Assembly: GCF_023055435.1 (NCBI RefSeq)
Contig: NW_025963784.1
Coordinates: forward strand, 806,001 to 870,000
Length of the DNA stretch: 64,000 nucleotides
Direction: 5' to 3'
Source of the DNA: Haliotis rufescens
Taxonomy: Eukaryota
Made by a program: the position numbers and the translations under genes. Position 1 is the first letter of the stretch. Every line of letters begins with the position of its first letter. This document shows positions 994 to 51,500 of the stretch, piece by piece. The notes below the pieces were generated by a model. That model saw only the letters and a program-made list of their open reading frames with translations, was not told where the DNA came from and ran no database searches.

Positions 994-1100
994 TTTATAT
1001 ATAGAAAGATGGGGATTCCCCTACTTGTTGACTGAGTTGTCGGGAAACTGTCCAGCTCCAAATGTTACTTACAATTGATCTCGGGCTGCGGATTTTCGGA
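994..1100 (-). promoter_or_regulatory. DD1 promoter: TATAAA (999-994), kB site GGGGATTCCCC (1011-1021), TCCGAAAATCCG (1100-1089)
   Basis: The motif order and spacing recur upstream of the other family members. Confidence 0.65.
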
Positions 1101-3898
1101 TTGTATCTGCCATTAAAAAATGTGGTGTGGGGGTCAGATGTTGGTGTTCGTGCAGCTTTGATGATCAAATAGTATGTTNNNNNNNNNNNNNNNNNNNNNN
1201 NNNNNNNNNNNNNNNNNNNNNNNNNNNNNNNNNNNNNNNNNNNNNNNNNNNNNNNNNNNNNNNNNNNNNNNNNNNNNNNNNNNNNNNNNNNNNNNNNNNN
1301 NNNNNNNNNNNNNNNNNNNNNNNNNNNNNNNNNNNNNNNNNNCAACTTCAAACATTACATGAAGATGTTTCTGCAAAATTCTTTTTTTAAAAAAGCACCA
1401 CATTGTATTATATCCAGGTAATACTTAATGGGACAAATCTTACGAGTTGAATGGGCTTGAAAACACGAAGAGCTACTGAAGAGAAGAGGAAAAATAGTGG
1501 TGGTGTGGATTGGCATACATGAGAAATGAGACAGTCATGTTGTTAACCAAAGTCTCGTCATGTTAGTGTGCACCAATACACTTAAATGTGTTTCCTTTTC
1601 AATAGTACATAATATAATATGAACATATACACATTAGCAGGTCATTTTGCGTTGAGAGCTCAATGGGATATAATAGCATAGCGAAGAACTTCACTTGAAC
1701 TGATTGCGAAGGCGGAACATTCTTCTGTTTAATTGACCTCGATGTGTACGTACAGCAGTTGAATCATCTCACATTTATTCCCGAAACATCAAGTTTTGAT
1801 AAAAGCGACATGCCTAATGATAAAGGAATATCTTCTAATATATCCTCCTGTTCAATTTAATGTACTGGTTACAAAGGAATATCTGCGAAATAATAAAGGA
1901 ATATGTGTTAATATATCCTCCTGTTCAATTTAATGTACTGGTTACAAAGAGGAATATCGAAAAATGGTTACAGTATAAAACAATGTCACATTATCCCAAA
2001 TAGACTCAACATAATATGTTTTAGATATGGTACTAATATAACAGTTGCTGAAGTGCGCATTGGTTATTGCAGAGCGTGTGTCGGATCTTAAATAACTGAC
2101 AATTGAATAACCATTTTGAAATGCATTAATATTTCTTAATGGAGTTGTGACATGTGAATAAATCCAGTTGGAACAGAGAACCTCTGATTGACTGCGTCGG
2201 ATTTTCGGACTAGCAACGTCACAATCGCCGCCGACAAGTAAACGTTATTATCGTCTCTTGTACCGGGACTCTGGCTTTCTTGAATGACTTGGCGATCGAC
2301 TTCGTCTGTCATTACTCTGAAGCGGAGATTTTTTTTATCGAAAATACAACGTGAATAGTATTCTATTTCAACAGGTTTCACAGTTATATAGCAAGCATTT
2401 TACATGAAGTAAAATGTTAAACTCCCGCTTTGGACATTGTTATTGAACCCCAGGGGTAAAAAGCACTCAACATCTACGTTATTGTTCCAGGATCTAATGG
2501 TGGTAACATGTGACATACATTAGTGTAGAAACAGTACAAACTATACAAACATCTCGTTCTAGTGATGTTTCAAAGTGAATGTCATGTGGACCAATATGCC
2601 TTCAGCTTCATGCTGGTAACGACATTTTGCAACAACAAATAGCTTACATCTTTTATTAATTTTGTGAAAGTGGTGGGTGCATCTGGTAGAGCATTACATG
2701 CTAATCATTCTGTGGAATTCCTGGTGTCATCACTGATTTTCAGTGATCCATTCCACTTTTCATCACTATTTTTGATCTTTTCTATGCATAAAAAAGTGAC
2801 AGTGTTTCAGGCTTCTCTATTATTGAGAACATGACTTGTATGTTTGTCATTCAAATTCTTTTTCAAGTTATTTGTAGAATGTAAGAGAGTATATTATTGA
2901 ATACATAAAATCGGATTTTCGAAACAACTAGATTTTTCACCCCTACAACTCTGTTGCAATGGTGCATAGAAATGAGTGCAGTCACTAATAGTCCAAATGT
3001 TTTATGGTAAAAGTGTAGAAGACTGGATAGGATAGCCATTTCCTTGTCTGTGACGGGTTCCACCAGTGGGACAGGATACCTTTTCGCGAACTTCTGGTAT
3101 CATCTCTGTTTGATTTCATACCTGAGAACCACTACAGCCCATGACCGGTATCGCAAACTTCCAACCAGGAAATCTTCTTACAAATAGATTACAGCTACAA
3201 TAGAAAGTAAAACACTGATTGTCGTCCATAATCAATCAGCAAGATTCTACGACCGGCAAACCCTTGTGAAATTGTTCAAAAGAAGAGACAACAGATAAAC
3301 AGTACACTTGGAACAACATAACACAAATAATTTGACTGTTCAATCGTGACCCGACATTGTAGAGTCAAATCATAATGTGAGACGCAATTATGTCTCCGGA
3401 TTTTCGGATAACGGATGACGTTTAGGCCACATGTATTCATCCCTCGCTAGTTCATCCTCAAATAAAAGAGACAGAAAGACAAGTTGTTACAAAAAGCATC
3501 ACAGCAATTTATTAAAAGCATTTATTCTCAACACACACACATAGAATCACAATGTATTACAAACGGAAAAGATATTACTGTTTAAATGAAGAGTGTTCAG
3601 TTTGCATCTTGAGGAAACAGAAAATCAATCAGATCAGTCAGGATTCCAAATTATGTACAAAAGTCTCAGTGAACCTAGCATCGCGACTCGATATTTCAAA
3701 ACGGGAACCCAATCAATCAAAGATAACTGTACATGAGAAGACTGTTCAGTGCAGCGCTAGTATATGAGAGAACATAAATGTAGGCATGATTTCTCTGTAT
3801 GTTGTCGGGGAAACTCAGTGACGATTACTTATATACCCACTCGTGTATTCACAGCGTAAAGCAAGACAGCGTCATGTGCATACAGCTCTCCGACTTGA

Positions 3899-4826
3899 TT
3901 ACACAGACACAGTGGACGGTCCCTGAAGGATGTTGAGAATGTCCTCCCACTCAATGGTACACCTGTCATTGCAACTCCACAGTGCTCTGACAAGGACCAG
4001 GCTGGTTGCAGTTCTCCCGTTCTTCTCCTTCCACTTTGTAAGCATGTGTACAACTTGCATGTATAGTGAACATGGATGTGCAAAAGTCACTTGTTCGATA
4101 ACCACGAGAGTAAGTCCAAGTTCGATGCCAACAGACTCGAACCCGATCCCGATGTGACTTGCAACAAGGCTGAGATCTCGTCCCGACACAGGAGTATCCA
4201 ACATCTCTTCATTTACAGCATATGCATGGTTCACATGTCTTGGCCCTACAACATTAAACTCACAATAAACTACCTATTTACTTGTGTACATTGTGTGTGA
4301 TAGATGTAACAACACTCAGTTCGCTTTCATTATTCTAAATTAGCCTCACTAAACAAAAACAAAAAATACGACCCGTCCATCAATTCATCCACTCATCCAT
4401 ATGGTAATGTGGAAAAAATCATTGTGGTACTCATAGAGCTATACTTCCTGAAATATAAGACAAACAGATCGTTTCAATTCAATGAAACTAAAAAAATTAA
4501 ACAATGTGTTCCAACGTACCTCTCTCTGCCGGGTCGCGTTTATAATGGCAATTTATCGAGTTCCCTGTGGTGGTCAGTCTCTGGAATCGAATAAACACAG
4601 TTTTAAACACGATTGATAGCTACACTATCATAGCAATGGATCATCTTACATAAACTAAACTAAACAAAACAATGCAATAACAAATGCACGTGTACACACG
4701 CCGACGCGCATTATAAACATTGATACCTTAACGTTCGAATCGGGAAAGAACATGAAATAAGCCTGTGGCTGTATATATATCCACCTGATATCGGAATCTT
4801 GACCAGCATGAAACATTATTACCCAT
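3899..4826 (-). CDS. Death-domain-only protein, copy DD2 (exons 4826-4785, 4580-4520, 4245-3899; 149 aa, intact)
   Basis: MGNNVSCWSRFRYQ|RLTTTGNSINCHYKRDPAER|GPRHVNHAY...VASHIGIGFESVGIELGL...MLTKWKEKNGRTATSLVLVRAL. Exon sizes 42/61/347 nt give an open frame. Minus-strand AATAAA signals lie at about 3508-3526. Confidence 0.85.
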
Positions 4827-4912: not shown

Positions 4913-5017
4913 TTTATATTTGGTAGTAGCGTAAGAGGATTCCCCTGCCTTTGGTAGGGAATTGTCAGTCACAGGCAACTTACAAACGGTTTTGGGATCG
5001 CAGTTCGGATTTTAGGA
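4913..5017 (-). promoter_or_regulatory. DD2 promoter: TATA, kB-like GGGGAATCCT (4945-4936), TCCTAAAATCCG (5017-5006); identical in DD6 (~37266-37370)
   Basis: Positionally conserved with the DD1, DD3, DD4 and DD8 promoters. Confidence 0.55.
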
Positions 5018-8000
5018 TTTCATTCGCCATATCAGGATGATAGGCATGGGTAAAATACTTGTGCCGGTAGTATAAACACTTGCGTCAGTCGTGTGTTTAT
5101 AGCCTTTTAGAAGTTGGAAGAATGTGACAAAATGAAACGTGTTTGGATGACAACTTCTTGCCCGTTCATCGTGTGAGGATGCAGGTGAAAGGTGAAGAAG
5201 TAGTCCTCAAATGTCGTAGCAAACAATAGAGAAGTTGTGATCCATAAGAGTTTCACGTGTGTTTGGATCATACTTGCACGCAAGTCATACCGATACTTGT
5301 CTTTTCTGGGCCATCTGTCTTGTTCAGGTGCAGTAAATAATACACTTGTTTAAGTTTATTCAGTTAAATTGTTCATGTTGGCTTTCATCAGATCATCTGT
5401 AGATACGCGTGTTCTCATTTTCCTTATCATCAATACACGGTATGCAGAAACTGATCAAGACAAGAACCATTAAAACCATTTCATCACATTTCTTTTGATG
5501 TTACGATTATAAATGATTCTGTCTTCAGTCTATGTATTTTGGCAAGGATGTTCAAACAAAAACTTTTGCATACGATATATGTGTCTCAAAGCAATATTAC
5601 CAAGGAACATGATACGTATATACATCGGTAAGTGTTGGAAGCTTACGCCGTAATATGATCAATTAGATCAAACCGATCTACCACACTAAAATCATCGATC
5701 CGAAAATCCGACAAAATGTTATACATGTAAATACATGTCGCTAGAGGAGCTGTACATACCGGAATGTGTACATAGGAACAGTTATGTTGCTGTGCGGATA
5801 AGGATATGAGTTCGCGGGTAGTGTCAGTAGGGGGTGTATACGATTTTACGTGCTGAATGGGCTTGAAAATATGAAGAAGAAATAAGGGGAAATATGAGCA
5901 GTGATGTGGTTTGGTATATTGAGGAAATGATATAACATGTTGTCTACATTCACTTGTCTCATCATATAAGTGTGCATCATATAAGTGTGCACAAAACACT
6001 TGAACCTGTGTAGTTGTCAATAGTGCATAAGATAACCAGGCAGTGATCAATACGTAGTGTAAAATTGACTTCCGCCAGAATAGATATAAATGATGTCTCA
6101 CTGTGACATGAGTGCATAACGAAGAACTTCCTTTGAACTAATTGTCTAGTGGAACGTTCTACTGTTTGATTGATGTCGATGTGCATTGGGAAGCAGTTCA
6201 GTCACCTCGCATCTACTCCCGATATATCCCGCGAAGACTGAGGGATAATCTGTAGTTAAAATTCTGTTCATTATTATAAAAGGAATATCTGCTAAAACCT
6301 AATCTTCGTCAGCTGAAGAGGAATATGCAGAATGGTTATAGTATACAACAATGTACGATTATCCCAGATAAACTCAATATTTTATGGTCAATATATCGTA
6401 CCCACGTTACACAGAACAATTGTCAGATATTAAGTAATTGGTGATTGAATAAATTATACATTTGAACTATACATGGGACAGGTTTTTGGACCAATGAAGT
6501 GAAATTTTCCATTTACAAAGAAAATATTTTACCTTCTCGTGTACCCGGACACAAGCTTACTTGAATGGCTTGACGATCGACTACGTCGGGTTCGATTCTC
6601 AACATGACAATAACGTTTATGACAAGTTTGATGCGCTTGTGGTATGTGGACATAATAAATTAAAATGTTAAAAACCTTGGTATCACGACTGCATACAAAA
6701 TAGTGGTTACTTTTATTATTCTGTTTCGTGTGAGAATTATGCATCACCTGTAGTTTGTGGTACTCTGTTAAAGTTAAATTGTGTGTAAATAGTAAAGCGG
6801 GCGGTAAGACGTTTCAGGATTTTCGGATTTTCGGACTGTCGTGAAAAGGCTTATTGAAAAGAAATGCATGTCGTTACGAATATGTTCTGATTTCTGTTTA
6901 CAAACACTTGAATATTTTTTTATCATTGCTATCACTGTGAGGTGGAAGTATTATAAGCCTGCGGCTCGTGGTATTTAACATAGGGCCGGACGCATTAAAC
7001 CACATGAACCCCTCGTGGTACTGCTAAAACGAATTTATCTTACTGACATGTTACACTTGTTAAAGAATTGAAGCAAAATCAAAATTGATAGAAAACAGAT
7101 GTTCGATTGAGCTGAGGATAACTTGTGCTATGTCACGCGACTTTCACTGACTCGGAAAAAGCGTGCGGCTTTTTGCTTCGAAGCGGGGTTGAAGGGATTC
7201 ATTCTCCCGCTCAATGATCACGTGATGCCCGTCTTCTTCGTGGCGGGGTATAAGCGATTATTCTCCCGCTGAGACATTTATGTTCCACCCAGGCAGAATG
7301 CATAGAACTTTATCAAGATCACGTGAACTAATCATATATCAACATTCTGAAATGGAGATATGATGGAACAGAACAGAGAATAATTAGAAATATCTGCCAA
7401 ACGTAAAGCAGATTTTTCGAATCTGACTTATCATAAGTGTGTGTTATTTTATGCAGTGTCAACTTAACTCGGAGGAAAACTGTAGCGCATATCATTCACG
7501 TTTACCACTATGGCAGAACCTCCGATCATGGGTATGTTTCTAACAAACCAACCATCATAATCAGCACAAATCTGGGATTCGAACTCACAATCAAAAGATT
7601 TCGTCACGCTGATTATGTACAGCTATCTGCAACGCATCAGACTACTAAGACACCACCTTGAGTCGTGGAAATGAAATGTTGGATATGTGACAAATCATTT
7701 ATTTTTCGCATTACCGAGCTCAACACTGTAGTATATGTTCCTTCCGATTGAAGTTAACTGAAATATGATAAAACACAAGACTACGATCTTTCATTATTCT
7801 TTGTATATTTCTGAGCGATATTTCACAGATCTAATGGAATCCAAAGCATTCCGAATTTAGTATTTCATATTATTACACAGGCCAGACAGGGAGCGGAAAA
7901 ATCCCCCGATAGGTGTGATAACTATATATATTTGCTATACATGAAGGCAAATCACATAGCCACTTTTACCTCGACACATCTGATCGCTGTACAGGCGGGG

Positions 8001-8060: not shown

Positions 8061-9708
8061 TTACAGTGACTGCAGGATGTTGAGAATGTCTTCCCATTCA
8101 ATCGTGCATCTCTCTTTACATGTCCAGAGTGCTTTGACCAGGACCAGATAGGTGGCCGAACTGCCATTCCACTGCTTCCATTTCGTGAGCATAATCAAGA
8201 TCTGCATATACATTGAACATGGGTGTGCAACTCTGCCCTGTTGAATAGCCACAACGCTGAGCCCAAATTCAATCTCGACATACTCAAAGCCGATCCCGAT
8301 ATGTCTCGCAACAAGGCCGAGATCTCGTCTGGTCACTGAAGTCTTGAGTTTTCCGTCATCACAGTGTGCTGAACCTATATGACAAATACAAGAGACACAA
8401 AATGTTATTTAACGGCTGTAATTAGATGTAAGAATAAAATATTAGTTCCGGAGGGCTGTTATTCCGACAAAACAGTTTAAGAGAAAAAATAACTGAAATG
8501 ATAACATGTGCATGGGAACCTAAAACATATTACAGTAAAACAGTTAAAGAGAAATACAGGAAACCACAGTGGACAATCATGTATCAGCTTTACATACAGA
8601 GCATTTCTATATGGAGCCTGACCAATTCCAAAGAAGCCTGCCGAAATCTATATATGATTCAACGTTTCGCAAATCATTTGAAAGGCAATTCCAGACCCGG
8701 TGGCCTCACAAACAAACGCATTCAGCCAGAACATTGATGTTGTTACCAGGGGATTCTCAGCTGAGGGAGTTTGAAGGAGTTGGTTTGACTTCTGATTTCA
8801 TGAACACTTTTATATTTTATTGATATAACATATGTTTTGAATTAACCTAACTCACTTACCGAACTATATTATTAAACAGCTAAAAAAAACCAACCAGAAT
8901 ATTTCAGAACAAAATGCATTCATAAATCTTCAAAACAGATATTATGAGAAATGAGTAAAACAAACCTTTCTTTACGATCTGCTGAATACAAAGACAGGTC
9001 AGTTCGTTGTTTGTCAGCCTCTAGAATAGAAAGTACACACTAACAGTACACTAACAGTGTTAAGCTCACATGCTGGATCATTTCTGGACACGCATTGCAT
9101 TTTGCTTCATAGTCAAAGAGTGAGTGAGTGAGTTTGGTTTAAAGTCGCTTTTAACAGTATTCCAGTTATATCACAACGTGTCAGCTTAATGTGGGAGGAA
9201 AGCCCGAAGTGATGCAAGTTTAAGATGTTTACCTCTTCGGTGAAACCCAGGAGCGCGGTTATGGTGCTGACAAACCTAGAAACATAATAGGGGCCAACCC
9301 CGGATTCGGCGTGCCAAATGGACGCACCTCTGCACAGGCGCCTTAGACGACTGGGCCACCCGTGCCCCCTCATAGTCAAAGAAAACATTAATATTTCACC
9401 ATGCTCGACTTGATATTTTCATTCGTACGGAATGATAAACAATCTGCAGAGTCATGTTGACATTAAAATGATAACTGTGTAAACACCTCACTGGGCTGCT
9501 GACTATCACTGACATAGTCAATGGAAATATCAAAGAGTGTGGTCAATCCCGGTAAAATAACATCGAGTATGATGAATTTAGAATGCTATACTCTGAGGGT
9601 CGAGTGCTGTTCAAGTTTTACAAATTGCACATTTGTCATATAAACTAGAAAGTCGTTAAGGCGTACCTGATATTGAATTCCTGGGGAGCACGACAGAATG
9701 TTCCGCAT
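8061..9708 (-). CDS. Death-domain-only protein, copy DD3, divergent (exons 9708-9667, 9020-8966, 8374-8061; Gly2 replaced by Arg)
   Basis: MRNILSCSPGIQYQ|RLTNNELTCLCIQQIVKK|GSAHCDDGKLKTSVTRRDLGLVARHIGIGFEYVEIEFGL...MLTKWKQWNG. Canonical splice sites; the frame stays open. Confidence 0.7.
9120..9369 (-). mobile_element. tRNA-derived SINE (second family) with 13-bp TSD
   Basis: TSD TCATAGTCAAAGA at 9107-9119 and 9370-9382, and a (TCAC)n tail. Homologous to 28124-28400. Confidence 0.85.
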
Positions 9709-9797: not shown

Positions 9798-9878
9798 GGG
9801 GAATCCCCACCACAATATGAAACTACTACTTCTCTATCGTTCATGTTCGCTTCCAGCAAGGATCTTCGGATTTTCGGA
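9798..9878 (-). promoter_or_regulatory. DD3 promoter: kB site GGGGAATCCCC (9798-9808) and CGGATTTTCGGA (9867-9878)
   Basis: Both motifs are conserved although the flanking sequence is strongly diverged from the other copies. Confidence 0.6.
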
Positions 9879-11933
9879 TTTTTAAAATCGATAGAAAGAT
9901 ATGGCGATTGTCTCGATGCAGTGTAATAATATGAATGGATCACTGAAAAACAATGATGACACCAGGTTTTTGTGAAAATGTTGAGCATGTCCTGCTCTAC
10001 TTGGGCGGCCCGCCACTCCCACAAATTTACTAAAGTAAGTGTGCAATGTTCCTGCCACGACGCTGGCCTCAACATAATCGTTTCTAGACCAGTGATCATA
10101 ATCATGAGTAAGCGTGACCATCCCATCGATTCAAATGAGTGCCATTAAGTTAGGAGGAGTGAAACGTCCCTGTAATGTCATGGCATGTCAGAGAATCGCG
10201 CATGATGTTGACAAGCAGCGTATTATGTTTGATAAAATCCTCCGAATGCCTACCATAAAATGTTTGAAATGACTTGAACAGGCCTTTGATGGTTCAACCT
10301 TACTTGAAATACTTAGTCATATGAAAGTTATGAAATGTAAGAGGTTATATTGTTGAATATTGTACACATAAAATCGAATTGTTGGACCCACTAGTTTTAT
10401 CACCAATACAAATCTGTTTCTGTAGCGTAGAGATGAGAGAACAGTCACCACTGTATCAACACATGCATGCTTCGTCTTGGCGCCAATCTCTTCCGTCATC
10501 CTTCTCAGTCTACATGCAAACGTGTTTTAAGTTTAACGGTAGGTGAAGAGGACATTTCCAAATTTGTGGCATCAGTGGCGATGACGTGCGATGCAGTTCC
10601 CGATTTGGACCATATGAGCCCGTGTTTGTTCCCAGTGCATAACACTGGCTTTTCGCTTTGATGTGTTTAGACGGTGCAACCAGTGGGACAGGACACGCTC
10701 ATCTTTACGCTGACACTTAGTATCATAACTATGTGATGGTTATAAAAAAAATACATGATAATGTTATCGCTTTTCTTTTTATTTGTTAGATTTGCGAAGA
10801 AGAAAATAGGCATGACAATTTGTTCAATAATGACCGTTCGACTGAAATAATAAGATATAATATAAATTGTATGTACGAGGCAATGTTTTGTAACATAAGT
10901 ACCTGCTTCTGTGATATAAGATTTGTGCATTATAACGACTGTTGAAAACATGGCAACAGTTGTCATTTGTTATCAATCTAAACAAGCACCAGCAAACATA
11001 TGCATAATCAATAATTGTTCATAAATCTAAAACAATATCTATTGTATATTAAGCCATAAGACCAATAAAACATTTTGCATATTGTTATTTACCAGGCTAT
11101 ATTTCGGCGTTGTTTAGACATTACTATGGGGCACTGGTTCATATACATAGGTAGCATGTTTTAAGGAAAATGTTTATGTCCATATATATCTCAGCCCATG
11201 CTGCATTAATGATGCGCATCTCTCTATAGATGTGATCACACCCCAGTTGCTGCACAAGGTGACCTGTCATAACCTGTCATCATTCCTGAAAACTACTACA
11301 GCCCATGACCTTACAAATAGAATAGAGCTAATATATAAAGTCAGAAAATAATGGCGTCCTTAATGAATCAAAAACGATTCTACAACCGGCAAACCTTATA
11401 ATAGTGTTCAAAATCAGAATAAACAGATAGACAGTACCCTTGAAATTACATTCTAAAAATATTTAGAATTTTCAATCCTTAATATAGTCGGGACATTTGT
11501 TATGTGAGAGGCAATTATGTTTCCGGATTTTCGGACTACGGATGACGTTTAGGGCACAGCTTGTCATCCCTCGGTCACTGTTCCGCGAATATCACAAGAG
11601 GCAGAATGACCAGTTCTTACAAAGGACATCAATGCAGTTTATTAACATACAAATACAATCACAATGTATTATATACGGAAATTAAATGATAACTGTACAT
11701 ATGATGAGTGTTTAGTGCGCAACTTGCACGAGGAAAAACATCATCCGGTTCAGTCATGGTGAATCTAGTATCGCGACTCGATATTTCAAAGGGATTGTTT
11801 CGCACAATCTAAATGTGCAGGTGCATGGCTACGCAGAAATAAATGTTAGTACCTGAAGGATGTTGAGAATATCCTCCCAATGAATAAATCAGTGATAACT
11901 GTACTTGAGAAGGTTGTTCAGAGCAGCACTTTA

Positions 11934-13235
11934 TTAACCTGACTTAGTGGACGGTCCCTGAAGAATGTTCAGAATGTCTTCCCACTCAATAGTACATTTC
12001 TCGTTGCATCTCCACAGTGCTCTGACGAGGACCAGGCTGGTGGCAGATCTTCCATTCTTCTCCATCCACTTCGTAAGCATGTGTACAACCTGCATGTACA
12101 GTGAATTTGGGTGTGCAAACGAGACTTGTTCGATAACCACGAGAGTAAGTCCAAGTTCGATGCCGACACACTCAAACCCTATCCCTATGTGACTTGCAAC
12201 AAGGCTGAGATCTCTTTCAGATACAGGGATATTCAGCCTCTCTTCATTCACAGCATATGCTTGGCTTCAGGGTGTTGTATCTACAAGAATCATCTCACAA
12301 TAAGCATGTTCNNNNNNNNNNNNNNNNNNNNNNNNNNNNNNNNNNNNNNNNNNNNNNNNNNNNNNNNNNNNNNNNNNNNNNNNNNNNNNNNNNNNNNNNN
12401 NNNNNNNNNNNNNNNNNNNNNNNNNNNNNNNNNNNNNNNNNNNNNNNNNNNNNNCTGTCAATTCCCTATCAATATTCTACGTTATTTTAACTTATCTTAA
12501 GATTAAATTTACTCGAAAACCAAAAAGAAATACATATTGTTAATGTACCACAACGTATAAAGAAAACGTTTGGGTGGATGCACAGACAATGGAAATAATG
12601 TCAAGCTTGCATCTAATAAAGCATAACGTGACACACTATCCAAATCTTACATTTAGTAAAACGATAAATGCGACTGAACGTACCTCTCAGTTCGAGCTGG
12701 TGGTTATAATAGCAGGTTATGTGGTCGTCTGTCTTGGACATTTTCTGGAATCAAAATGAACACAGTGAGTGAGTGAGTGAGTGAGTATGGTTTTACGCCG
12801 CTTTTAGAAATATCCCAGCAATATCACGGCGGGGAACACCAGAAATGGGCTTCACACATTGTACCCATGTCGGGAATCGAACCCGGGTCTTCGGCGTGAC
12901 GAGCGAACGCTTTAACCACTAGGCTACCCGACCGCCCCAAATGAACACAATGAGGCATATTCCTGGTGACGCTTGGATCCCGCATATTGTAAACTTTAAA
13001 CCTATTTTAAACCACGATTGAGAACTGTAGCGTCACAAGAAGTCTGGTAATGTTACATACACTAGTATAGATAAACAAACATAAAGTCGCATTTGCACGT
13101 GTACACACGAGGACGCGCATAAACATTGATGAACAGTGACAAGCTAACATTCATTAATTGTTGGGAAAATACGTGAAGGGATTCTTTATTTACCTGATAT
13201 CTGAATCTTGACCAGTATGAACAAATATTACCCAT
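11934..13235 (-). pseudogene. Death-domain gene copy DD4 with premature stop (exons 13235-13194, 12744-12684, 12280-11934)
   Basis: MGNICSYWSRFRYQ|KMSKTDDHITCYYNHQLELR|DTTP* has TGA at 12269-12267, where paralogue DD8 has TGG. The death domain downstream is otherwise open. Confidence 0.75.
12765..12938 (-). mobile_element. tRNA-derived SINE, full length, with 11-bp TSD
   Basis: A box TAGCCTAGTGG, B box GGTTCGATTCC and (TCAC)n tail. TSD AAATGAACACA at 12754-12764 and 12939-12949. The empty site is at ~44151-44161. Confidence 0.9.
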
Positions 13236-13350: not shown

Positions 13351-13435
13351 GGGGATTCCCCCTACTTGCTGTGCGGGAAGTGTTGTATGCCACGTGAACA
13401 ATCTTGTTCCGGCTCTCGGACTGCGGATTTTAGGA
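13351..13435 (-). promoter_or_regulatory. DD4 promoter: kB site GGGGATTCCCC (13351-13361) and CGGATTTTAGGA (13424-13435)
   Basis: Positional conservation; the kB site is 116 bp upstream of the ATG. Confidence 0.6.
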
Positions 13436-15724
13436 TTTCATAAACCATTTCAATCTTGGGGTGTGTGTGGGTGAAATAGCAGTGTTGGTTTGAGTTGAAT
13501 CATCAGTATGCACATCGTGTGCAGTGATACTGGGGCGGTGGGTAGCCCAGCGGTTATAGAGTGTACGTGTAGGTTAAGGGGCACCCGGATATGTAATGAT
13601 ATTGGCACTTAATTTCTATCATTAATAATAGATCTGTTTTATTAAATGATCTATTTGTTTACTTTGAGCGTGTTGCTTTCATGAACTCATGAAAACATTT
13701 GCCTGTTGTTCTCAGCACACGTTTCTTATCATCCGAAAAAAACGACAGAACGTGTGTCAGGTATTGACATATTCATTCACTACACACTTGACTTCGCCAG
13801 GAGAGATATCGTCCGCCTGTCTATAAATAGGGATTGTCCCTGTCGCACAACTAATACGATCGAACCAATAGTGTACAAATAGTATCAAATTCGAGTTTCC
13901 AATACACAGAATGTAGGCCTCAAATGATGTAAGAGTTATCAGAGATTGTGGTGATGTGACCTGGCAGTCTAGCCAGCCTAGCGCTGTGTAATAGATATAT
14001 ATACGAGCCCAGTGTATGGTGTCTTGCTGTGTTATCGCCCTTCATGTAAAGGAAGTTTAGTGGGGATTACATTACAGGCCATGGCACATTTTTCAAAAGT
14101 TTGTATTTGAAATCAGGAATAAATTGATGATGCAAATGTATCAAATAAGATAATGAGGAAAAACACACCCGTACGCATAACGATACTATTCTAATACAGA
14201 ATAAATAAGGTGCTTTTTTTCAATGCAAACATACTCAAACAGTCGGTAGTTAATTTGGAGCAGTCAAAGCTCTATTAAGGATTTGGCTTACAGCCGTGCC
14301 TTGATGAAACTAATACGTAACACCTGATCACGAACTGCACATGCCCCTTTGACAACCATGGTACAGTGTTTGAACCGATCTAGGTCCGAAAATCCGACAA
14401 ACGTCAACGTTGCAAGGCTATAAATATATGTCACTACATGGATGCACATACCGGCGTATATACATTGTAGCAGTGACTGGCAAAAGGTTCGTTGGAGTTA
14501 TGATGTCACACTCAAGTGGTTTTCGTACACTGTGACACCGATTGAGGTTAAGATTAATGGTAGGGTTCCGTTCCACAATATATAATTGTCAATGCACGAG
14601 AATAAATAAATATATGAATGTACCACTGAAAATCAATGATGACACCAGGTGTTCGAGGAAAGGGTAAGCATGTCCTGTTCTACCGGTAGCACCCGTCATT
14701 CATACAAAGCGATCGTAGCACCAGGGCGACCGTAACTCCCACACTTTAGCATGGACCTACGACAGTCGTAGCGCTAAGATCGCTTAGGAAAACGGGGCCT
14801 GCGAAGCCATACACAATGTAAAGGCGTCATATGTGGACAATATTAAGCTGAACATTTCCGGCAGCTATGTTGTTTGGTTAATGTATGTGACAGCAGTGTG
14901 CATGCAGTATTCTTCCAGGGGGAGGTGTAACTGACAAGATTAACAGGTACTGCACATGGCATTTAATTTATTTCGCAATATCATTTAGTGGGCGAAAACG
15001 TCCTTAGAGTATTTAGGGCTGCATGTCATTGTGTGTGGGAAGGCGAAAATGGCATTTAACAACTGACTCAAAGAAGCAAACATCCACAAGAAAATAATTG
15101 ATTGCAATACTGTTTACGGTTCAGCTAAGATACTACTGCTGCATATTATGTCCAGGAAACTCATTGAATACAGTATTGTTACTCGCTATTTCAACGTTTT
15201 AGAGTTTCCCAAGTGTAAACTACCTAGATACTTGGCTTCATAACGCGATTGTTTACAGACCGCCGTTATAAAGCTGGAATATTGCTGAGTGTGACTTTAA
15301 ACAACAAACGAACGAACGATCGAGATCTACATCCATCTGGTCAACCCTGTCCACCCTGTCACCCACCGCAATTTACCCACTTACCTTTTAATTCAAATCG
15401 TCTAAGCCAGAGAATAACAGTCTCTCGTATGTGCCGAAACAGGTTCCACAGCGTGTAAATGCAAAATTGTGCAAATGATCAGAGACCAAATCAATCAGGT
15501 ATGACACCAGGTCCTCACGAAAGGGTAAACATGCCCTGCTGTATCTGTACAACCTCCTACTCACCTAACGCTGCACTAAAACAATACTTCTGCCACACGG
15601 CCCTATCACTAGACCGCCTCCGTGGTCTAGTGATAGAGCATCCACACGGAGAGCGGAAGGTCCGTGCACGTCGCTATATAAGTGCACTAAACTTAGACGT
15701 GACCTTAAACCCAATTTCCCTTCC

Positions 15725-17559: not shown

Positions 17560-17662
17560 GCCCCCCCCCACCCACCCCCCCCCACCCCCCCCCCACCCAC
17601 CCCACCCCCCCCCCCCCCCACCCACCCCACCCCCCCCCCCCCCCCCCCCCCACCCCCACCCC
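17560..17662 (+). repeat. Poly-C tract in exon 1 of copy A (frame-preserving, +87 nt relative to copy B)
   Basis: Copy B has GCCCCCGTCACACCCCAG (53064-53081) at this position. Confidence 0.8.
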
Positions 17663-37179: not shown

Positions 37180-40100
37180 GCTGTGAGTATCTATGCTTCT
37201 ACTTCACACACGTGTATCCCACAGCCAGCTGACACAGTCTGATACTGTCGACGGTTCTGACAATCTTTATATTTGGTAGTAGCGTAAGAGGATTCCCCTG
37301 CCTTTGGTAGGGAATTGTCAGTCACAGGCAACTTACAACCGGTTTTGGGATCGCAGTTCGGATTTTAGGATTTCATTCGCCATATCAGGATGATAGGCAT
37401 GGGTAAAATACTTGTGCCGGTAGTATAAACACTTGCGTCAGTCGTGTGTTTATAGCCATTTAGAAGTTGGAAGAATGTGACAAAATGAAACGTGTTTGGA
37501 TGACAACTTCTTTCCCGTTCATCGTGTGAGGATGCAGGTGAAAGGTGAAGAAGTAGTCCTCAAATGTCGTAGCAAACAATAGAGAAGTTGTGATCCATAA
37601 GAGTTTCACGTGTGTTTGGATCATACTTTTCTGGGCCATCTGTCTTGTTCAGGTGCAGTAAATAATACACTTGTTTAAGTTTATTCAGTTAAATTGTTCA
37701 TGTTGGCTTTCATCAGATCATCTGTAGATACGCGTGTTCTCATTTTCCTTATCATCAATACACGGTATGCAGAAACTGATCAAGACAAGAACCATTAAAA
37801 CCATTTCATCACATTTCTTTTGATGTTACGATTATAAATGATTCTGTCTTCAGTCTATGTATTTTGGCAAGGATGTTCAAACAAAAACTTTTGCATATGA
37901 TATATGTGTCTCAAAGCAATATTACCAAGGAACATGATATGTATATACATCGGTAAGTGTTGGAAGCTTACGCCGTAATATGATTAATTAGATCAAATCG
38001 ATCTACTACACTAAAATCATCGATCCGAAAATCCGACAAAATGTTATACATGTAAATACATGTCGCTAGAGGAGCTGTACATACCGGAATGTGTACATAG
38101 GAACAGTTATGTTGCTGTGCGGATAAGGATATGAGTTCGCGGGTAGAGTCAGTAGGGGGTGTATACGATTTTACATGCTGAATGGGCTTGAAAATATGAA
38201 GAAGAAATGAGGGGAAATATGAGCAGTGATGTGGTTTGGTATATTGAGGAAATGATATAACATGTCGCTACATTTACATGTCTCATCATATAAGTGTGCA
38301 TCATATAAGTGTGCACAAAACACTTGAACTTGTGTAGTTGTCAATAGTGCATAAGATAACCAGGCAGTGATCAATACGTAGTGTAAAATTGACTTCCGCC
38401 AGAATAGGTATAAATGATGTCTCACTGTGACATGAGTGCATAACGAAGAACTTCCTTTGAACTAATTGTCTAGTGGAACGTTCTACTGTTTGATTGATGT
38501 CGATGTGCATGGGAAGCAGTTCAGTCACCTCGCATCTACTCCCGATATATACCGCGAAGACTGAGGGATCATCTGTAGTTAAAATTCTGTTCATTATTAT
38601 AAAAGGAATATCTGCTAAAACCTAATCTTCATCAGCTGAAGAGGAATATGCAGAATGGTTATAGTATACAACAATGTACGATTATCCCAGATAAACTCAA
38701 TATTTTATGGTTAATATATCGTACCCATCAGTGAGCATCAGAACAATTGTCAGATATTAAGTAATTGGTGATTGAATAAATTATACATTTGAATATACAT
38801 GGGACAGGTTTTTGGACCAATGAAGTGAAATTTTCCATTTACAAAGAAAATATTTTACCTTCTCGTGTACCCGGACACAGGCTTACTTGAATGGCTTGAC
38901 GATCGACTACGTCGGGTTCGATTCTCAACATGACAATAACGTTTATGACAAGTTTGATGCGCTTGTGGTATGTGGACATAATAAATTAAAATTAAAAACC
39001 TTGGTATCACGACTGCATACAAAATAGTGGTTACTTTTATTATTCTGTTTCGTGTGAGAATTACGCATCACCTGTAGTTTGTGGTACTCTGTTAAAGTTA
39101 AATTGTGTGTAAATAGTAAAGCGGGCGGTACGACGTTTCAGGACTTTCGGATTTTCGGACTGTCGTGAAAAGGCTTATTGAAAAGAAATGCATGTCGTTA
39201 CGAATATGTTCTGATTTCTGTTTACAAACACTTGAATATTTTTTTATCATTGCTATCACTGTGAGGTGGAAGTATTATAAGCCTGCGGCTCGTGGTATTT
39301 AACATAGGGCCGGACGCATTAAACCACATGAACCCCTCGTGGTACTGCTAAAACGAATTTATCTTACTGACATGTTACACTTGTTAAAGAATTGAAGCAA
39401 AATCAAAATTGATAGAAAACAGATGTTCGATTGAGCTGAGGATAACTTGTGCTATGTCACGCGACTTTCACTGACTCGGAAAAAGCGTGCGGCTTTTTGC
39501 TTCGAAGCGGGGTTGAAGGGATTCATTCTCCCGCTCAATGATCACGTGATGCCCGTCTTCTTCGTGGCGGGGTAAAAGCGACTATTCTCCCGCTGAGACA
39601 TTTATGTTCCACCCAGGCAGAATGCATAGTATTTTATCAAGATCACGTGAACTAATCATATATCAACATTCTGAAATGGAGATATGATGGAACAGAACAG
39701 AGAATAATTAGAAATATCTGTTAAACGTAAAGCAGATTTTTCGAATCTGACTTTATCATAAGTATGTGTTATTTTATGCAGTGTCAACTTAACTCGGAGG
39801 AAAACTGTAGCGCATATCATTCACGTTTACCACTATGGCAGAACCTCCGATCATGGGTATGTTTCTAACAAACCAACAATCATAATCAGCACAAATCTGG
39901 GATTCGAACTCACAATCATGGGATTTCGTCACGCTGATTATGTACAGCTATCTGCAACGCATCAGACTACTAAGACACCACCTTGAGTCGTGGAAATGAA
40001 GTGCTGGATATGTGACAAATCATTGTTGTTCGCATTACCGAGTTCATCACGGTAGTGTATGTTCCTTCCGATTGAAGTTAACTGAAATATGATAAAACAC

Positions 40101-41270: not shown

Positions 41271-43316
41271 TTTCAGCAGGTTTCCGTGAAAATGTTGAGC
41301 ATGTCCTGCTCTAGATCTACTTGGGAGGCCCGCCACTCCCACAAATTTACTGAAGTAAGTGTGCAATGTTCCTGCCACGACGTTGGCCTGAACATAATCG
41401 TTTCTAGACCAGTGATCATTATCATGAGCAATCGTGACCATCCCATCAATTCAAATGAGTCCTATTAGGAGGATTGAAACGTCCCTGTAATGTCATGGCA
41501 AGGGAAAGCCTCGCGCATGATGTTGACAAGCAGCGTGTTATGTTTGATAAAATCCTCTGAATGTCTACCATAAAATGGTGGAAATGACTTGAACAGGCCT
41601 TTGATGGTTCAACCTTACTTGAAATACTTAGTCCTATGAAAGTTATAAAATGTAAGAGGTTATATTGTTAAATATTGTACACATAAAATCGAATTGTTGC
41701 AGCCACTAGTTTTATCACCAATACAAATCTGTTTCTGTAGCGTAGAGATGCGAGAACAGTCACAATTGTATCAACACATGCATGCTTCGTCTTGGCGCCA
41801 ATCTCTTCCGTCATCCTTCTCAGTCTACAAGCAAAAGTGTTTTAAGTTTTACGGTAGGTGAAGAGGACATTTCCAAATTGGAAGCATCAGTGGCGATGAC
41901 GTGCGATGCAGTTTCCGATTTGGACCATATGAGCCCGTGTTTGTTCCCAGTGGATAACACTGGCTTTTCGCTTCGATGTGTTTAAGACGGTGCAACCAGT
42001 GGAACAGGACACGCTCATCTTTATGCTGACACTTGGTATCATAACTATGTGATAGTTATTAAAAAAATACATGATACTGTTATCGCTTTTCTTTTTATTT
42101 GTTAGATTTGTGAAGAAGAAAATAGGCATGACAATTTGTTCAATAATGACCGTTCGACTGAAATAATAAAATATAATATAAATTGTATGTCCGAGGCAAT
42201 GTTTTGCGACATAAGTACCTGCTTCTGTGATATAGGATTTGTGAATTATAACGACTGAAGAAAACATGGCAACAGTTGTCATTTGTTATCAGTCTAAACA
42301 AGCACCTGCAAACATATGCATAATAATTGTTCATATATCTAAAACAATATTTATTGTATATTAAGCCATAAGAACAACAGTAAATTTTGCATATTGTTAT
42401 TTACCAGGCTATATTTCGGTGTTGTTTAGATATTTTATGGGGTACTGGTTCATAAACATTGGTAGCATGTTTTAAGGAACATATTTATCTCACATATATT
42501 TATCCCACCCCATGCTGCATTGATGATGTGCATTTCTCTATAGATGTGATCACACACCACTGATGCTGCATAAGACGACCTGTCATAACCTGTCATCATT
42601 CCTGAGAACTACTACAGCCCATGACCAATATGTTTTATATACCAACCAGGAAATATCCTTACAAAAGGAATAGAGCTAATATATAATGTCAGAAAATAAT
42701 AGCGTCCTTAATGAATCAAAAACAATTCTACAACCGGCAAACCTTGTAATAGTGTTCAAAATCAGAGTCAACAGATAGACAGTACCCTTGAAATAACATT
42801 CTAAAAATATTTTTGAATTTTCAATCCTTAATACAGTCGGGACATTTGTTATGTGAGAGGCAATTATGTTCCCGGATTTTCGGACTACGGATGACGTTTA
42901 GAGCACAGCTTGTTATCCCTCGGTCACTGTTCCGCGAATATCACAAGAGGCAGAATGACCAGTTCTTACAAAGGACATCATAGCAGTTTATTAACATACA
43001 AATACAATCACAATGTATTATATACGGCAAATTAATGATAACTGTACATATGATGAGTGTTCAGTGCGCAACTTGCACGAGGAAGCAAAAATCATTCAGT
43101 TCAGTCATGATCCCAAATTGTGCACAGAAACCGAAGTGAATCTAGTATCGCGATTCGATATTTCAAAGCGGATGTTTCCTCTAAATGTGATTCGTACATG
43201 CAGGTGCATGGCTACGCAGAAATAGATGTTAGTCCCTGAAGCGTGTTGAGAATATCCTCCCAATCAATAAATCAGTGATAACTATACTTGAGAAGGATGT
43301 TCAGAGCAGCACTTTA

Positions 43317-44447
43317 TTAACCTGACATAGTGGACGGTCCCTGAAGAATGTTCAGAATGTCTTCCCACTCAATCGTACATTTCTCATTGCATCTCCACAG
43401 TGCTCTGACGAGGACCAGGCTGGTGGCAGATCTTCCATTCTTCTCCTTCCACTTCGTAAGCATGTGTACAACCTGCATGTACAGTGAATATGGGCGTGCA
43501 AACGTGACTTGTTCGATAACCACGAGAGTAAGTCCAAGTTCGATGCCGACACACTCAAACCCGATCCCAATGTGACTTGCAACAAGGCTGATATCTCTTT
43601 CAGATACAGGGATATTCAGCCTCTCTTCATTCACAGCATATGCTTGGTTCCAGGGTGTTGTACCTACAAGAACCATTCACAATAAGCATGTACNNNNNNN
43701 NNNNNNNNNNNNNNNNNNNNNNNNNNNNNNNNNNNNNNNNNNNNNNNNNNNNNNNNNNNNNNNNNNNNNNNNNNNNNNNNNNNNNNNNNNNNNNNNNNNN
43801 NNNNNNNNNNNNNNNNNNNNNNNNNNNNNNNNNNNNNNNNNNNNNNNNNNNNNNNNNNNNNNNNNNNNNNNNNNNNNNNNNNNNNNNNNNNNNNNNNNNN
43901 NNNNNNNNCAATTTTCCCTATCAATATTCTACGTTATTTTAACTTATCTTAAGATTAAATTCACTCACTTGTGGATGCACAAACAATGGGAATAATGTCA
44001 AGCTTGCATCTGATAAAGCATAACGTGACACACAATCCATATCTTACATTTAGTAAAACGATTAATGCGACTGAACGTACCTCTCAGTTCAAGCTGATGG
44101 TTATAATAGCAGGTAATGTGGTCGTCTGTCTTGGACATTTTCTGGAATCAAAATGAACACAATGAGGCATATTCCTGGTGACGCTTGGATCCCGCATATT
44201 GTAAACTTTATACCTGTTTTAAACCACGATTGAGAACTGTAGCATCACAAGAAGTAGGGTAATGTTACATACACTAGTATACAAAAATAAACATAAAGTC
44301 GCAATTGCACGTGTACACACGAGGACGCGCATAAACACTGATGAACAGTGTCACGCTGACATTCATTAATTTTAGGGAAAATACGTGAAGGGAATCTTCA
44401 CCTACCTGATATCTGAATCTTGACCAGTATGCAACAATATTACCCAT
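43317..44447 (-). CDS. Death-domain-only protein, copy DD8 (exons 44447-44406, 44141-44081, 43663-43317; 149 aa, intact)
   Basis: MGNIVAYWSRFRYQ|KMSKTDDHITCYYNHQLELR|GTTPWNQAYAVNEERLNIPVSERDISLVASHIGIGFECVGIELGL... Open frame with canonical splice sites. Confidence 0.85.
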
Positions 44448-44554: not shown

Positions 44555-44656
44555 GGGGATTCCCCCTGCTTGCAAGGCGAGAATTGTAGTAGGCGCTGAG
44601 GGACAGCGACCAGATGTGACAACCTTGTTCCGGCTCTCGGACTGCGGATTTTCGGA
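44555..44656 (-). promoter_or_regulatory. DD8 promoter: kB site GGGGATTCCCC (44555-44565) and CGGATTTTCGGA (44645-44656)
   Basis: Positional conservation; the kB site is 108 bp upstream of the ATG. Confidence 0.6.
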
Positions 44657-48183: not shown

Positions 48184-48543
48184 GGCAGGAAGCCGCCACG
48201 GCGCAGCCCCAGAGCCCTCATCATTCACCTGGGCTCCAACGACCTGTGCTCGGTCAAGGGCAGCCAACTCTACCTTGACATGGTGGCATCAATCCTTCGG
48301 ATACAACTCCAGCTTCCTGACACCAGGATCATCGTATCCTCAATGCTGCCCAGGCGCTACTGGCACGATGCCAGGGACCCACTAAAGATCGAGGGGATGC
48401 GGAAGAATATCAACCGCCGACAGGCCAACCGAGTCAAAGACAAGACATGGTACGCCTGGGAGGGCGTCCACCTCAGCGACAAAGGCCTGTGTGTGTTTAC
48501 GGACAATTTATTGCATGCCCTGGCGCTCGTTTTGCGCCAGTAA
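48184..48543 (+). pseudogene. SGNH/GDSL hydrolase remnant (C-terminal part of the element's last ORF)
   Basis: IIHLGSNDL (block III), IIVSSMLPR and EGVHLS (block V). The N-terminal part and the tyrosine recombinase are missing. Confidence 0.7.
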
Positions 48544-51500
48544 AGATATTATCTCCACAGGTTAGTGTTTCCTTTCAGTACATAGGCAAGCCGGGCAACA
48601 ATGCTATCTCCGCGCATCGCGTGGCCGTGGGTGTGGGGTAGCACTCGGGGGCTTTGTTGCGGGGTTCTTGTGGGCTACACTGCTAGTAACAAATTAACTT
48701 GCTTCCAAATTAATACTCGTGCTTAAGGCTACCTGCTTTTCAGCGGGAATCTTTCTGGGGTTACCTGCTTCTCAGTGGGAACCTTGTCTTTCCCGACTTT
48801 TCAGCCGGGGAATCGTAAAATAACATACGTTGGGGCAAACAATTGCCCCGTATATGGGCCCGGCGGTTGTTTTGCTAATGGGGCCGGGCAGTGTGATCTG
48901 CTTTGGCCGGCTACCTGGGGCCGGGCAGCGGTAGTCTGACTTAGGCCAGCAGCGTGGAGCTGCTTTTGGCAGCGTGGGTGTTGCCAAGCAATGGTAGCGT
49001 TTAAATATGCTACCGTGGGGGCCGGACAGCGGTAGCAGTCCCAGGCCAGCAGCGCTAGCTGCTTTTTGGTGTACACAATTAGCAGCTAAGTAGCCCACTA
49101 GTACCTGCACACCCTCGGCCATTTAACCCAACCTCATCTTCTGTTTTTATTATAGGCACGGGAACCCACGGCTCGGTGGCCCGTGCCTCTCCTTGGCATA
49201 TCGCGGGATAATTGCCTGTTGTTCTCAGCACACGTTTCTTATCATCCGAAAAATCCGACAGAACGTGTGCCAGGTATTGACATATTCATTCACTACACAC
49301 TTGACTTCGCCAGGAGAGATATCGTCCGCCTGTCTATAAATAGCGGCCCATAAATAGGGATAGTCCCTGTCGCACAACTAATACGATCGAACCAATAGTG
49401 TACAAATAGTATCAAATTCGAGTTTCCAATACACAGAATGTAGGCCTCAAATGATGTAAGAGTCATCAGAGATTGTGGTGATGTGACCTGGCAGTCTTTT
49501 CAGCCTAGCGCTGTGTAATAGATATATATACGAGCCCAGTGTATGGTGTCTTGCTGTGTTATCGCCCTTCATGTAAAGGAAGTTTAGTGGGGATTACATT
49601 ACAGGCCATGGCACATTTTTCAAAAGTTTGTATTTGAAATCAGGAATAAATTTATGATGTAAAATGTATCAAATAAGATAATGAGGAAAAACACACCCGT
49701 ACGCATAACGATACTATTCTAATACAGAATAAATAAGGTGTTTTTTTTCAATGCAAACATACTCAACAGTCGATAGTTAATTTGGAGCAGTCAAAGCTCT
49801 ATTAAAGGCATATAACAGCCTTAGCTATAGAGGAAAGGACATTGTCTGTCTGTCTGTTCCAGTTGTTTGTATCTGCAACCCAACAATTAATTGAGGAGTT
49901 GATGACTCCGGTGCAGGTGAGGATTTGGCTTACAGACGTGCCTTGATGAAACTAATACGTAACACCTGATCACGAACTGCACATGCCCCTTTGACAACCA
50001 CGGTACAGTGTTTGAACCGATCTAGGTCCGAAAATCCGACAAACGTCAACCTTGCAAGGCTATAAATATATGTCGCTACATGGATGCACATACCGGCGTA
50101 TATACATTGTAGCAGTGACTGGCAAAAGGTTCGTTGGAGTTATGATGTCACACTCAAGTGGTTTTCGTACACTATGACACCGATTGAGTTTAAGATCGAA
50201 GGTAGGGTTCCGTTCCACAATATATAATTTTCAATGCATGAGAATAAATATATGACTGTACCATTGAAAATCAATGATGACACCAGGTGTTCGCGGAAAG
50301 GGTGCACATGTCCTGTCCTACCGGTAGCACCCGTCATTCATACAAAGCGATCGTAGCACCAGGACGACCGTAACTCCCACACTTGAGCATAGACCTACGA
50401 CAGTCGTAGCGCTAAGATCGCTTTGTGAAACGGGGCCTGCGAAGCCATACACAATGTAAAGGCGTCATATGTGGACAATATTAAGCTGAACCTTTCCGGC
50501 AGCTATGTTGTTTGGTTAATGTATGTGACAGCAGTGTGCATACAGTATTCTTCCAGGGGGAGGTGTAACTGATAAGATTATCAGGTACTGCACATGGCAT
50601 TTAATTCATTTCGCAATATCATTTAGTGGGCGAAAACGTGCTTAGAGTATTTAGGGCTGCATGTCATTGTGTGTGGGAAGGTGAAAATGACATTTAACAA
50701 CTGACTCAAAGAAGTAAACATCCACAAGAAAATAATTGATTGCAATACTGTTTACGGTTCAGCTAAGACACTACTGCTGCATATTATGTCCAGGAAACTC
50801 ATTGAATCCAGTATGGTTACTCGCTATTTCAACGTTTTAGTGTTTCCCAAGTGTAAACTGCGTACATGTAGATACTTGGCTACATAACGCGATTGTTTAC
50901 AGACCGCCGTTATAAAGCTGGAATATTGCTGAGTGTGGCGTTAAACAACAAACGAACGAACGAACGAGATCTACATCCATCTGGTCAACCCTGTCCACCC
51001 TGTCACCCACCTCTATTTACCCTCTTACCTTTTAATTCAAATCGTCTGAGCCAGAGAATATTCAGTCTCTATTATGTGGCGAAACAGGTTCCACAGCCTG
51101 TAAATGTAAAATTGTTCATATGATCAGAGACAAAATCAATCAGGTATGACACCAGGTCCTCACGAAAGGGTAAACATGCCCTGCTGTATCTATATAACCT
51201 CCTACTCACCTAACGCTGCACTCAAAACAATACTTCTGCCACACGGCTCTATCACTAAACCGCCTCTGTGGTCTAGTGATAGAGCATCCATCCGGAGAGC
51301 GGAAGGCACGTGCACGTCGCTATATAAGTGTACTAAACTTAGACGTGACCTTAAACCCAAGTTTCTTTCCCTTCAGGTCTTACTTCGTGAAATAACGTCT
51401 ACCTTTCGCATTGAATGCGTCAGCAGCACTGGGTTTTCAGTGATCTTAAAGTATCCACATTGTCTGACCTGGTCATGTTTTAACGATGGGAACGATGGGT

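Follow-up and report, generated by a model that had tools for sequence, protein, structure and literature searches.

The stretch of DNA considered here (the window) comprises 64,000 nucleotides of the abalone Haliotis rufescens, positions 806,001 to 870,000 of contig NW_025963784.1 (assembly GCF_023055435.1). It consists of two segmental copies, 93-97% identical, each with about four small genes, whose minus-strand open reading frames (ORFs) encode death domains (DDs; PF00531), and one large gene on the plus strand. A 12-nucleotide word, CGGATTTTCGGA, recurs throughout the DD gene arrays; it is probably a transcription-factor site, present in clusters, that would work together with NF-kB at the small DD gene promoters. 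These genes have three coding exons, the first of which was found eight times and gives the proteins MGN-type N-termini. Gene g5 is without a DD exon, the DD exon of g6 is broken, and g8 has neither exon 1 nor promoter. The DD exon of g9 is 100% identical over 107 amino acids to H. rufescens LOC124127415, and relatives are found in H. cracherodii and H. rubra. The exons are as follows:

856..897, minus strand: coding part of exon 1 of g1, MGNIILCWSGFKYQ
3902..4246, minus strand: DD exon of g2 (PF00531)
8070..8360, minus strand: DD exon of g3, the most divergent paralogue
11940..12266, minus strand: DD exon of g4
30029-30070: exon 1 of g5, whose DD exon was not found
43323..43664, minus strand: DD exon of g9

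In the window, CGGATTTTCGGA occurs in 20 perfect copies, against 0.00 expected and 0 in each of 100 dinucleotide shuffles; with at most one mismatch there are 26 copies, against 0.08 expected. Eight perfect copies fall within 1-14600, eleven within 29500-44985 and one at 50027, and every copy lies in or adjoins the DD gene arrays. A scan of the window found none in 14600-29500 and 50300-64000, the regions of the two plus-strand genes (CG-1/Ulp1/ankyrin, see below), and none in a retroelement at 44986-49212. The initial annotation, made from the letters of the same DNA, had likewise seen no copy inside the large gene. Its 13 perfect and six approximate positions are all exact, and the copy that it called triple, at 29636, consists of three CGGA units, i.e. 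overlapping 12-mers at 29636 and 29644. The one-mismatch copies that it gave at 2912, 5006 and 13424 were recovered together with three more, at 6816, 35262 and 37359. Two mismatches are found at 9859, 30255, 31647 and 39140, and a variant with a spacer of five Ts occurs once, at 49245 on the minus strand.

All eight genes that keep exon 1, which represent about five deep lineages, carry a copy of the word with at most two mismatches 159-198 bp upstream of the ATG, the chance of such a copy being 0.0014 per 50-bp window. Four of these promoter copies are perfect, three have one mismatch and one has two. Each lies 69-90 bp beyond a kB-type site (decayed in g6), and most DD genes have one to three further copies within 2.5 kb upstream, in both orientations. 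The promoter elements are:

~995-1002, minus strand: TATA-like sequence of g1
1011..1021: kB-type site of g1, GGGGATTCCCC
1089..1100, plus strand: motif, promoter class, g1, 192 bp upstream of the ATG, with an extra CGG half-site 7 bp before it
4935..4945: kB-type site of g2, GGGGAATCCTC on the minus strand
5006..5017, plus strand: promoter copy of g2, C-to-A in the second CpG (as at 37359), 180 bp upstream of the ATG
9798..9809: kB-type site of g3
9859..9878, plus strand: promoter motif of g3 with an AGGA unit upstream; the perfect copy, at 9867, is 159 bp upstream of the ATG
13351..13362: kB-type site of g4
13424..13435, plus strand: promoter copy of g4, C-to-A in the second CpG, 189 bp upstream of the ATG
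30165..30174: kB-type site of the truncated gene g5
30255..30266, plus strand: two-mismatch promoter copy of g5, 185 bp upstream of the ATG; a CGGA unit precedes it by 7 bp
33466..33477, plus strand: promoter motif of g6, with the decayed kB site at 33388-33398
37359..37370, plus strand: one-mismatch promoter copy of g7
44555..44566: kB-type site of g9
44645..44656, plus strand: g9 promoter motif, 198 bp upstream of the ATG; a CGGA unit precedes it by 7 bp

When contigs of 4 of 24 listed runs were placed on 1900-7100 at 80% likeness for a depth test (see below), a contig joint at 4919-4987 was seen, in three of the four runs, to skip the stretch with the g2 kB site.

The copies had been sorted into three positional classes, beyond the kB site, past the polyadenylation (polyA) signal and inverted in intergenic DNA, and these classes are real. 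The post-polyA copies (n = 5) are oriented like the promoter copies and follow a minus-strand AATAAA at about 100-115 bp; the inverted ones lie 0.85-1.15 kb upstream of a start codon. Apart from the promoter copies, the following were found:

2198..2209, plus strand: motif, intergenic class, paralogue at 34543
2912..2923, plus strand: one-mismatch copy of a decaying class, paralogues at 35262 and 31647 and a 9/12 relic at 10375
3397..3408, plus strand: motif, post-polyA class, in a conserved block of about 50 bp; behind it come a third CGGA (+7) and the word TGACGT
5699..5710, minus strand: motif, inverted class, paralogues at 14385, 38024 and 50027
6816..6835, plus strand: triple unit AGGA/CGGA/CGGA of 8-bp period, paralogue at 39140-39159
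11524..11535, plus strand: motif, post-polyA class
14385..14396, minus strand: motif, inverted class
29636..29655, plus strand: triple CGGA (two overlapping 12-mers) that abuts a high-copy dispersed element, 426-434 bp downstream of the g5 ATG
31021..31032, minus strand: motif, inverted, with flanks unrelated to every other class
32225..32236, plus strand: motif, post-polyA class
34543..34554, plus strand: motif, paralogue of 2198
35747..35758, plus strand: motif, post-polyA class
38024..38035, minus strand: motif, inverted class
39148..39159, plus strand: motif, paralogue of 6824
42873..42884, plus strand: motif, post-polyA class
49245..49257, minus strand: 5-T spacer variant (9-bp period), its paralogue at ~13731 decayed
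50027..50038, minus strand: motif, inverted class

The conserved block of about 50 bp around the post-polyA motif (3370-3425; paralogues 11500-11555, 32200-32255 and 42850-42905) also holds GCAAT and TGACGT, words that we take to be C/EBP- and CRE-like, and is a candidate enhancer.

All 20 CGGA pairs of period 8 in the window carry a TTTT spacer. Nine CGGA pairs of period 7 lie next to the motif; in promoters they precede it, in post-polyA copies they follow it. Among 14 representatives, which are not independent of one another, a T stands at -2 of the first CG in 10 and at -1 in nine, and a pyrimidine directly follows the word in 13. From this pattern of spacer, third unit and flanking letters, the unit can be described as a direct repeat of two to three (TT)CGGAY half-sites. 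Wherever a single mismatch falls on a C position, the change is C-to-A (4/4 copies, representing few independent events), and the relic at 10375 shows C-to-T.

The initial annotation had also stated that the word persists while its flanks diverge, and this holds among the deep paralogues. When the flanks of promoter pairs were aligned with the motif left out, 14 deep pairs gave flank identities of 0.36-0.57 (unrelated pairs: 0.44 +/- 0.08), yet 9-12 of the 12 motif letters are kept, with P < 0.02 in 12 of the 14. Copies of the inverted class keep 12/12 letters between flanks of 0.38-0.56 identity. A comparison made without alignment placed the motif among the best-scoring 12-mers common to both promoters in 11 of 15 pairs; the exceptions were g1-g5, g2-g5, g4-g5 and the close pair g4-g9. 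Substitutions were uninformative: none of the 40 shown (of 623 in all, from 4 of the 24 runs) fell in a motif copy, about 0.6 being expected.

Since the two segmental copies inflate the raw count, the fair number is not 20 copies but the number of groups formed by flank homology. There are nine such classes, non-homologous to one another and having the word alone in common. CGGATTTTCGGA ranks first of the 793 12-mers with at least three copies, and the best non-overlapping 12-mer has three flank classes. The recurrence of the word exceeds what duplication gives. A second recurrent word, ACGAATATGTTC(T), is present in five copies and three flank classes in the window, with 657, 6876, 20698 and 29178 among its positions.

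The CpG observed/expected ratio is 0.80-0.82 in the DD arrays versus 0.41-0.45 in the motif-free large gene, and divergence of the arrays in CpG context is only about 1.3-1.6 times that of the GpC-context control. The argument that the word persists despite its two CpGs is therefore a weak one, and the absence of the motif from the large gene is partly explained by that gene being CpG-poor. Taken as a proxy for methylation, the ratio describes a setting that fits a factor acting in unmethylated DNA.

The word is thus enriched, conserved, fixed in its promoter position, clustered in both orientations and set in a CpG-rich context. This combination suggests that it binds a protein, which would cooperate with NF-kB in the induction of immune genes. 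The earlier description of the word as a selected protein-binding site stands in so far as it passed the tests of conservation among deep paralogues and, at the six sites examined, of repeat origin; its proposed ETS, IRF and CG-1 readers are poorly supported, and binding itself is what the letters suggest. In the preferred model, a single sequence-specific, multimeric factor would occupy the clustered CGGA half-sites in unmethylated DNA and, once bound, would hold the DD promoter open or set the threshold of its activation. The DD gene would then be switched on during immune signalling by Rel/NF-kB bound at the kB site. The post-polyA copies might serve the next gene as an upstream enhancer or form a boundary.

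Several observations weigh against this model. All motif statistics come from one 64-kb window, a single locus of one genome, on which a claim of genome-wide enrichment cannot rest, and both the kB sites and the polyA signals were recognized by consensus match only. The P values err on the optimistic side, because the word was picked post hoc and the pairs share ancestry and are not independent. Post-polyA copies have flanks that are themselves 0.69-0.81 identical (P 0.013-0.075); this class is weaker evidence, since its motif sits in a block conserved overall. The class of 2912, 31647 and 10375 is decaying like neutral DNA. Finally, the triple 20-mer is found in sequence collections at 69 metagenome and two viral loci, mostly in low-complexity tandem sequence (five of the 71 loci were examined in full). 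Low-complexity (CGGATTTT)n repeats at these 69 unrelated loci from metagenomes show that the word can come about without regulatory function.

Among the outside loci, an animal-like contig (L018, 1689-1708) has the triple inside a TGACCTTGACCTTTGACC-rich, dispersed-repeat-like unit, and a giant-virus contig (L001, 1001-1043) has three CGGATTTT units and an inverted copy between two genes. None of the 71 loci encodes a DD relative, and beyond the motif they show no likeness to the window except for one 32-bp match in L016. A search for the kB-plus-motif pattern gave no viral locus, and one with the DD protein gave none either.

Dispersed repeats are present in the window. A very high-copy element with a TCACTGA-TTT-TCAGTGA hairpin lies at 2652-2753, 9929-10034, 14612-14694, 15495-15530 and 29540-29635, near several motif copies but at variable distance and orientation. 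The depth test dealt with motif-plus-flank repeats only, not with the bare 12-mer, and depth is not copy number: in run X1, the six bins with motif copies are at background depth (585, 425, 604, 243, 66 and 279), versus 30,910 in the bin with the dispersed element at 2720-2753. With background depth at all six motif sites examined and nine unrelated flank classes, the word is not part of a common dispersed repeat at these six sites. The flanks of the motif, compared with two copies of the high-copy element, gave at most 9/20 identities when anchored, and of 64 local scores only 1 exceeded the 99% null; an origin from the GATTTTC hairpin of this element was rejected in the same comparison. An origin as a LINE 3' tail was ruled out, the classes being without a common 5' flank. 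Long terminal inverted repeats framing the motif copies were not found. An Rfam scan gave a tRNA-like match inside a short interspersed element (SINE) only and no sign of structured RNA; the word, besides, is present in both orientations. The tRNA-derived SINE copies, with (GAGT)n tails, are at 12763-12933 and 16683-16792, and the Rfam tRNA match is at 12862-12933. The retroelement at 44986-49212, which presumably resembles Ngaro/DIRS elements, has zinc-finger, reverse transcriptase and GDSL-hydrolase-like ORFs; it is upstream of g9, about 35 bp from the 5-T motif variant.

The DD exons of g1 and g2 are 96.6% identical (1-320 versus 3967-4286), while the identity of their promoters is only about 54%, a contrast that suggests gene conversion or exon swapping. 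The DD-only proteins start with MGN..S/C at 856-897, 4785-4826, 13194-13235, 30029-30070 and 44406-44447, Gly2 being lost in g3 and g6. Glycine at position 2 is the rule for N-myristoylation. This start suggests possible myristoylation and palmitoylation, which would make the proteins membrane-anchored adaptors or decoys.

The neighbouring large gene has the following position:

17434..26531, plus strand: gene with a CG-1-like domain, an Ulp1 (C48) peptidase and an ankyrin array; second copy from 52938 on (52938-64000)

It matches H. rufescens LOC124125549 and LOC124125553, and both copies in the window show apparent frame breaks, near 23140-23770 and 59130-59190. For the N-terminal domain, 85 relatives were found (E up to 0.001). 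In protein P0007 it scores 23.0 bits against Pfam CG-1 (PF03859), for a cut-off of 23.5, which homologues pass (P0010, 30.9 bits). Its structural model (pLDDT 94.9) bears a weak likeness to SSR4 (Foldseek E 0.006) and NAC (E 0.03), and its profile matches WRKY at E 0.015. Among 28 proteins scanned, five others have the CG-1/Ulp1/ankyrin layout, two combine CG-1 with a MULE transposase domain, and in several there are two to six tandem CG-1 domains; relatives with the CG-1/Ulp1/ankyrin layout are 1,200-4,100 amino acids long. The label CG-1-like, which the initial annotation had used, is fair in view of the near-cut-off score and the passing homologues; the tie that it speculatively drew between this domain and the motif comes down to adjacency.

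Three other explanations have to be set against a site acting with NF-kB. The word might be a neutral relic, derived from the end of a transposon, the tail of a repeat or a (CGGATTTT)n seed prone to slippage, and spread without function by tandem duplication and gene conversion. The near-identical segmental copies, the mosaic DD exons of g1 and g2, the outside occurrences of the 20-mer (with L018 inside a repeat-like unit), the triple at 29636 that abuts the high-copy element and the weak CpG decay of the region are all what such a history would leave. Yet nine flank classes have the word alone in common, the flanks are saturated and the motif is not, the six motif sites are at background depth, the flanks do not resemble two copies of the high-copy element, and all promoters have the word at a fixed position relative to the ATG. 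We therefore regard a functionless relic as unlikely.

Alternatively, the word could be a boundary, termination or recombination signal, insulating genes that lie close together or driving the turnover of units, rather than partnering NF-kB. Five copies about 100-115 bp past AATAAA, in the orientation of the promoter copies, would suit such a role, as would a contig joint at 3364-3397 in run X11 that ends at the first base of the 3397 copy; a single joint, however, is no evidence of a hotspot, and block ends in a self-comparison, judged by eye, do not obviously fall on motif copies. Moreover, the post-polyA copies represent one ancestral site that is also 1.8-2.5 kb upstream of the next gene, and the gene-proximal copy keeps a fixed distance from both the kB site and the ATG. 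A signal of this kind is improbable. Fainter still is the prospect that the word is read by the CG-1-like/Ulp1/ankyrin protein next to it, or by some related factor derived from a Mutator transposase, with the repeat unit carrying the regulator along with its targets. The Pfam likeness, the MULE-joined relatives and the SSR4/NAC/WRKY-like model speak for it, as does the duplication of the large gene along with the DD arrays. CAMTA CG-1 domains, however, bind CGCG or CGTG and not CGGA. The sole link is adjacency, the Foldseek E-values are 0.006 or weaker, there is no motif copy within about 3 kb upstream of the start of the large gene, and no long terminal inverted repeats were found around the motif copies. 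Transposase-derived transcription factors are known (PMC13538051). On this improbable view, the word would be an undescribed abalone immune response element read by a Mutator-derived CG-1/SUMO-protease/ankyrin protein, and, if so, each unit of about 32 kb could conceivably be a self-contained circuit in which a domesticated transposase-type regulator accompanies NF-kB-driven DD targets.

A clustered site acting with NF-kB at the DD promoters remains the preferred explanation. Literature text, searched for CGGATTTTCGGA or its extensions, returned only papers on unrelated subjects, subscription papers and figure-only motif logos being outside the search; 10-mer pieces of the word gave unrelated papers only. 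Searches on mollusc motifs and chromatin accessibility (ATAC), DEAF1 in molluscs, CRADD-like genes in abalone infection and tandem ETS/kB enhancers returned nothing on this element, and in the literature searched no cis-regulatory element for mollusc immune genes was found beyond NF-kB-type consensus matches. A near-invariant word of 12-14 letters can be counted genome-wide, would predict a co-regulated gene set and is usable as bait for its reader. If it marks immune promoters genome-wide, it would give a handle on the wiring of inducible defence in abalone, animals reported to lack MAVS (PMC11103948). If it is confined to this array, it would be an ordinary local regulatory site of modest interest.

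The element can be compared with several known systems. Like the clusters bound by insulator, general regulatory or transposase-derived factors (BEAF-32, Reb1; JRK, PMC13538051), it is found repeatedly and in either orientation, both around promoters and behind 3' ends, though no known motif of this kind matches the abalone word. The word is no kB site either, as it reads GGATTTTCG, and separate canonical kB sites lie 69-90 bp away. The kB consensus, GGRNNYYCC, ends in YCC. An IRF site needs GAAA-NN-GAAA, and the consensus of the interferon-stimulated response element (ISRE) is GAAANNGAAA. The abalone word shares with it a CCGAAA half-site on the coding strand of the genes and a place in immune-type promoters. 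Unlike an ISRE, it has a 4-letter spacer, the second GAAA is mostly absent while TCCG is invariant, and a natural GAAA-to-TAAA variant is tolerated; none of the nine GAAANNGAAA matches in the window overlaps a motif copy. The IRF-like GAAA repeat that had been suggested thus fits poorly, and, given a binding site, IRF and Rel are each improbable as its reader.

Tandem ETS sites of the GABP type come closer. The ETS consensus is GGA(A/T) followed by a purine, with C or A tolerated before GGA. The abalone element has GGA-core direct repeats, and C-to-A before GGA is seen at 5006, 13424, 6816, 9859 and 31647, including 4/4 single-mismatch copies at C positions. It departs from ETS sites in its period of 8, in a second unit that is often GGAC and, above all, in the letter after the core: T follows GGAT in 14/14 first half-sites, and a pyrimidine follows the second GGA in 13/14. 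The ETS-type CGGAT reader proposed at the outset is therefore a poor fit and, if the word is a binding site at all, a doubtful one. A lineage-specific zinc-finger or transposase-derived reader is possible, although that possibility is spread over many candidates.

Ahead of these, we tentatively rank a DEAF-1/SAND-type CpG reader as the single best guess for a binding site of this sequence. Human DEAF1 recognizes repeated TTCG half-sites, whose CpGs are 6 nt apart in 23 of 58 selected sequences; spacings of 6-11 nt were tested and allowed, variable spacing being tolerated (PMC4274154). It prefers GG after the CpG (TTCGGG), less strictly in the second half-site, and its binding is abolished by CpG mutation and blocked by methylation (PMC4274154). 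Drosophila DEAF1 is required for Drosomycin and Metchnikowin (PMC3750155), and silkworm Deaf1 did not recognize a mutant TTCG core (PMC6001065). A DEAF1 consensus string had no matches in the literature search; TTCGKNNNTTCGK, an adaptation of the consensus to 6-nt spacing, matches four motif sites and one other place. Three features argue against filing the word as a DEAF-1 element. TTCG has become TTAG at 5006, 13424 and 37359, i.e. in 3/8 promoters; the CpG is followed by GA (14/14 after the first, 12/14 after the second), so that an A takes the place of G two bases after each CpG; and the letters of the spacer are fixed. The third unit, at a CpG spacing of 5 nt, is also outside the range tested for DEAF1. 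The abalone word nevertheless resembles a DEAF-1 element in its direct-repeat CpG half-sites, 6 nt apart in 20/20 perfect copies and so within the 6-11 range. The letters TT in front of the second CpG are part of the word itself; the first CpG usually has Ts there as well, though less clearly (T at -2 in 10/14 and at -1 in 9/14 representatives). The setting is similar too, CpG-rich DNA in immune-type promoters beside NF-kB sites.

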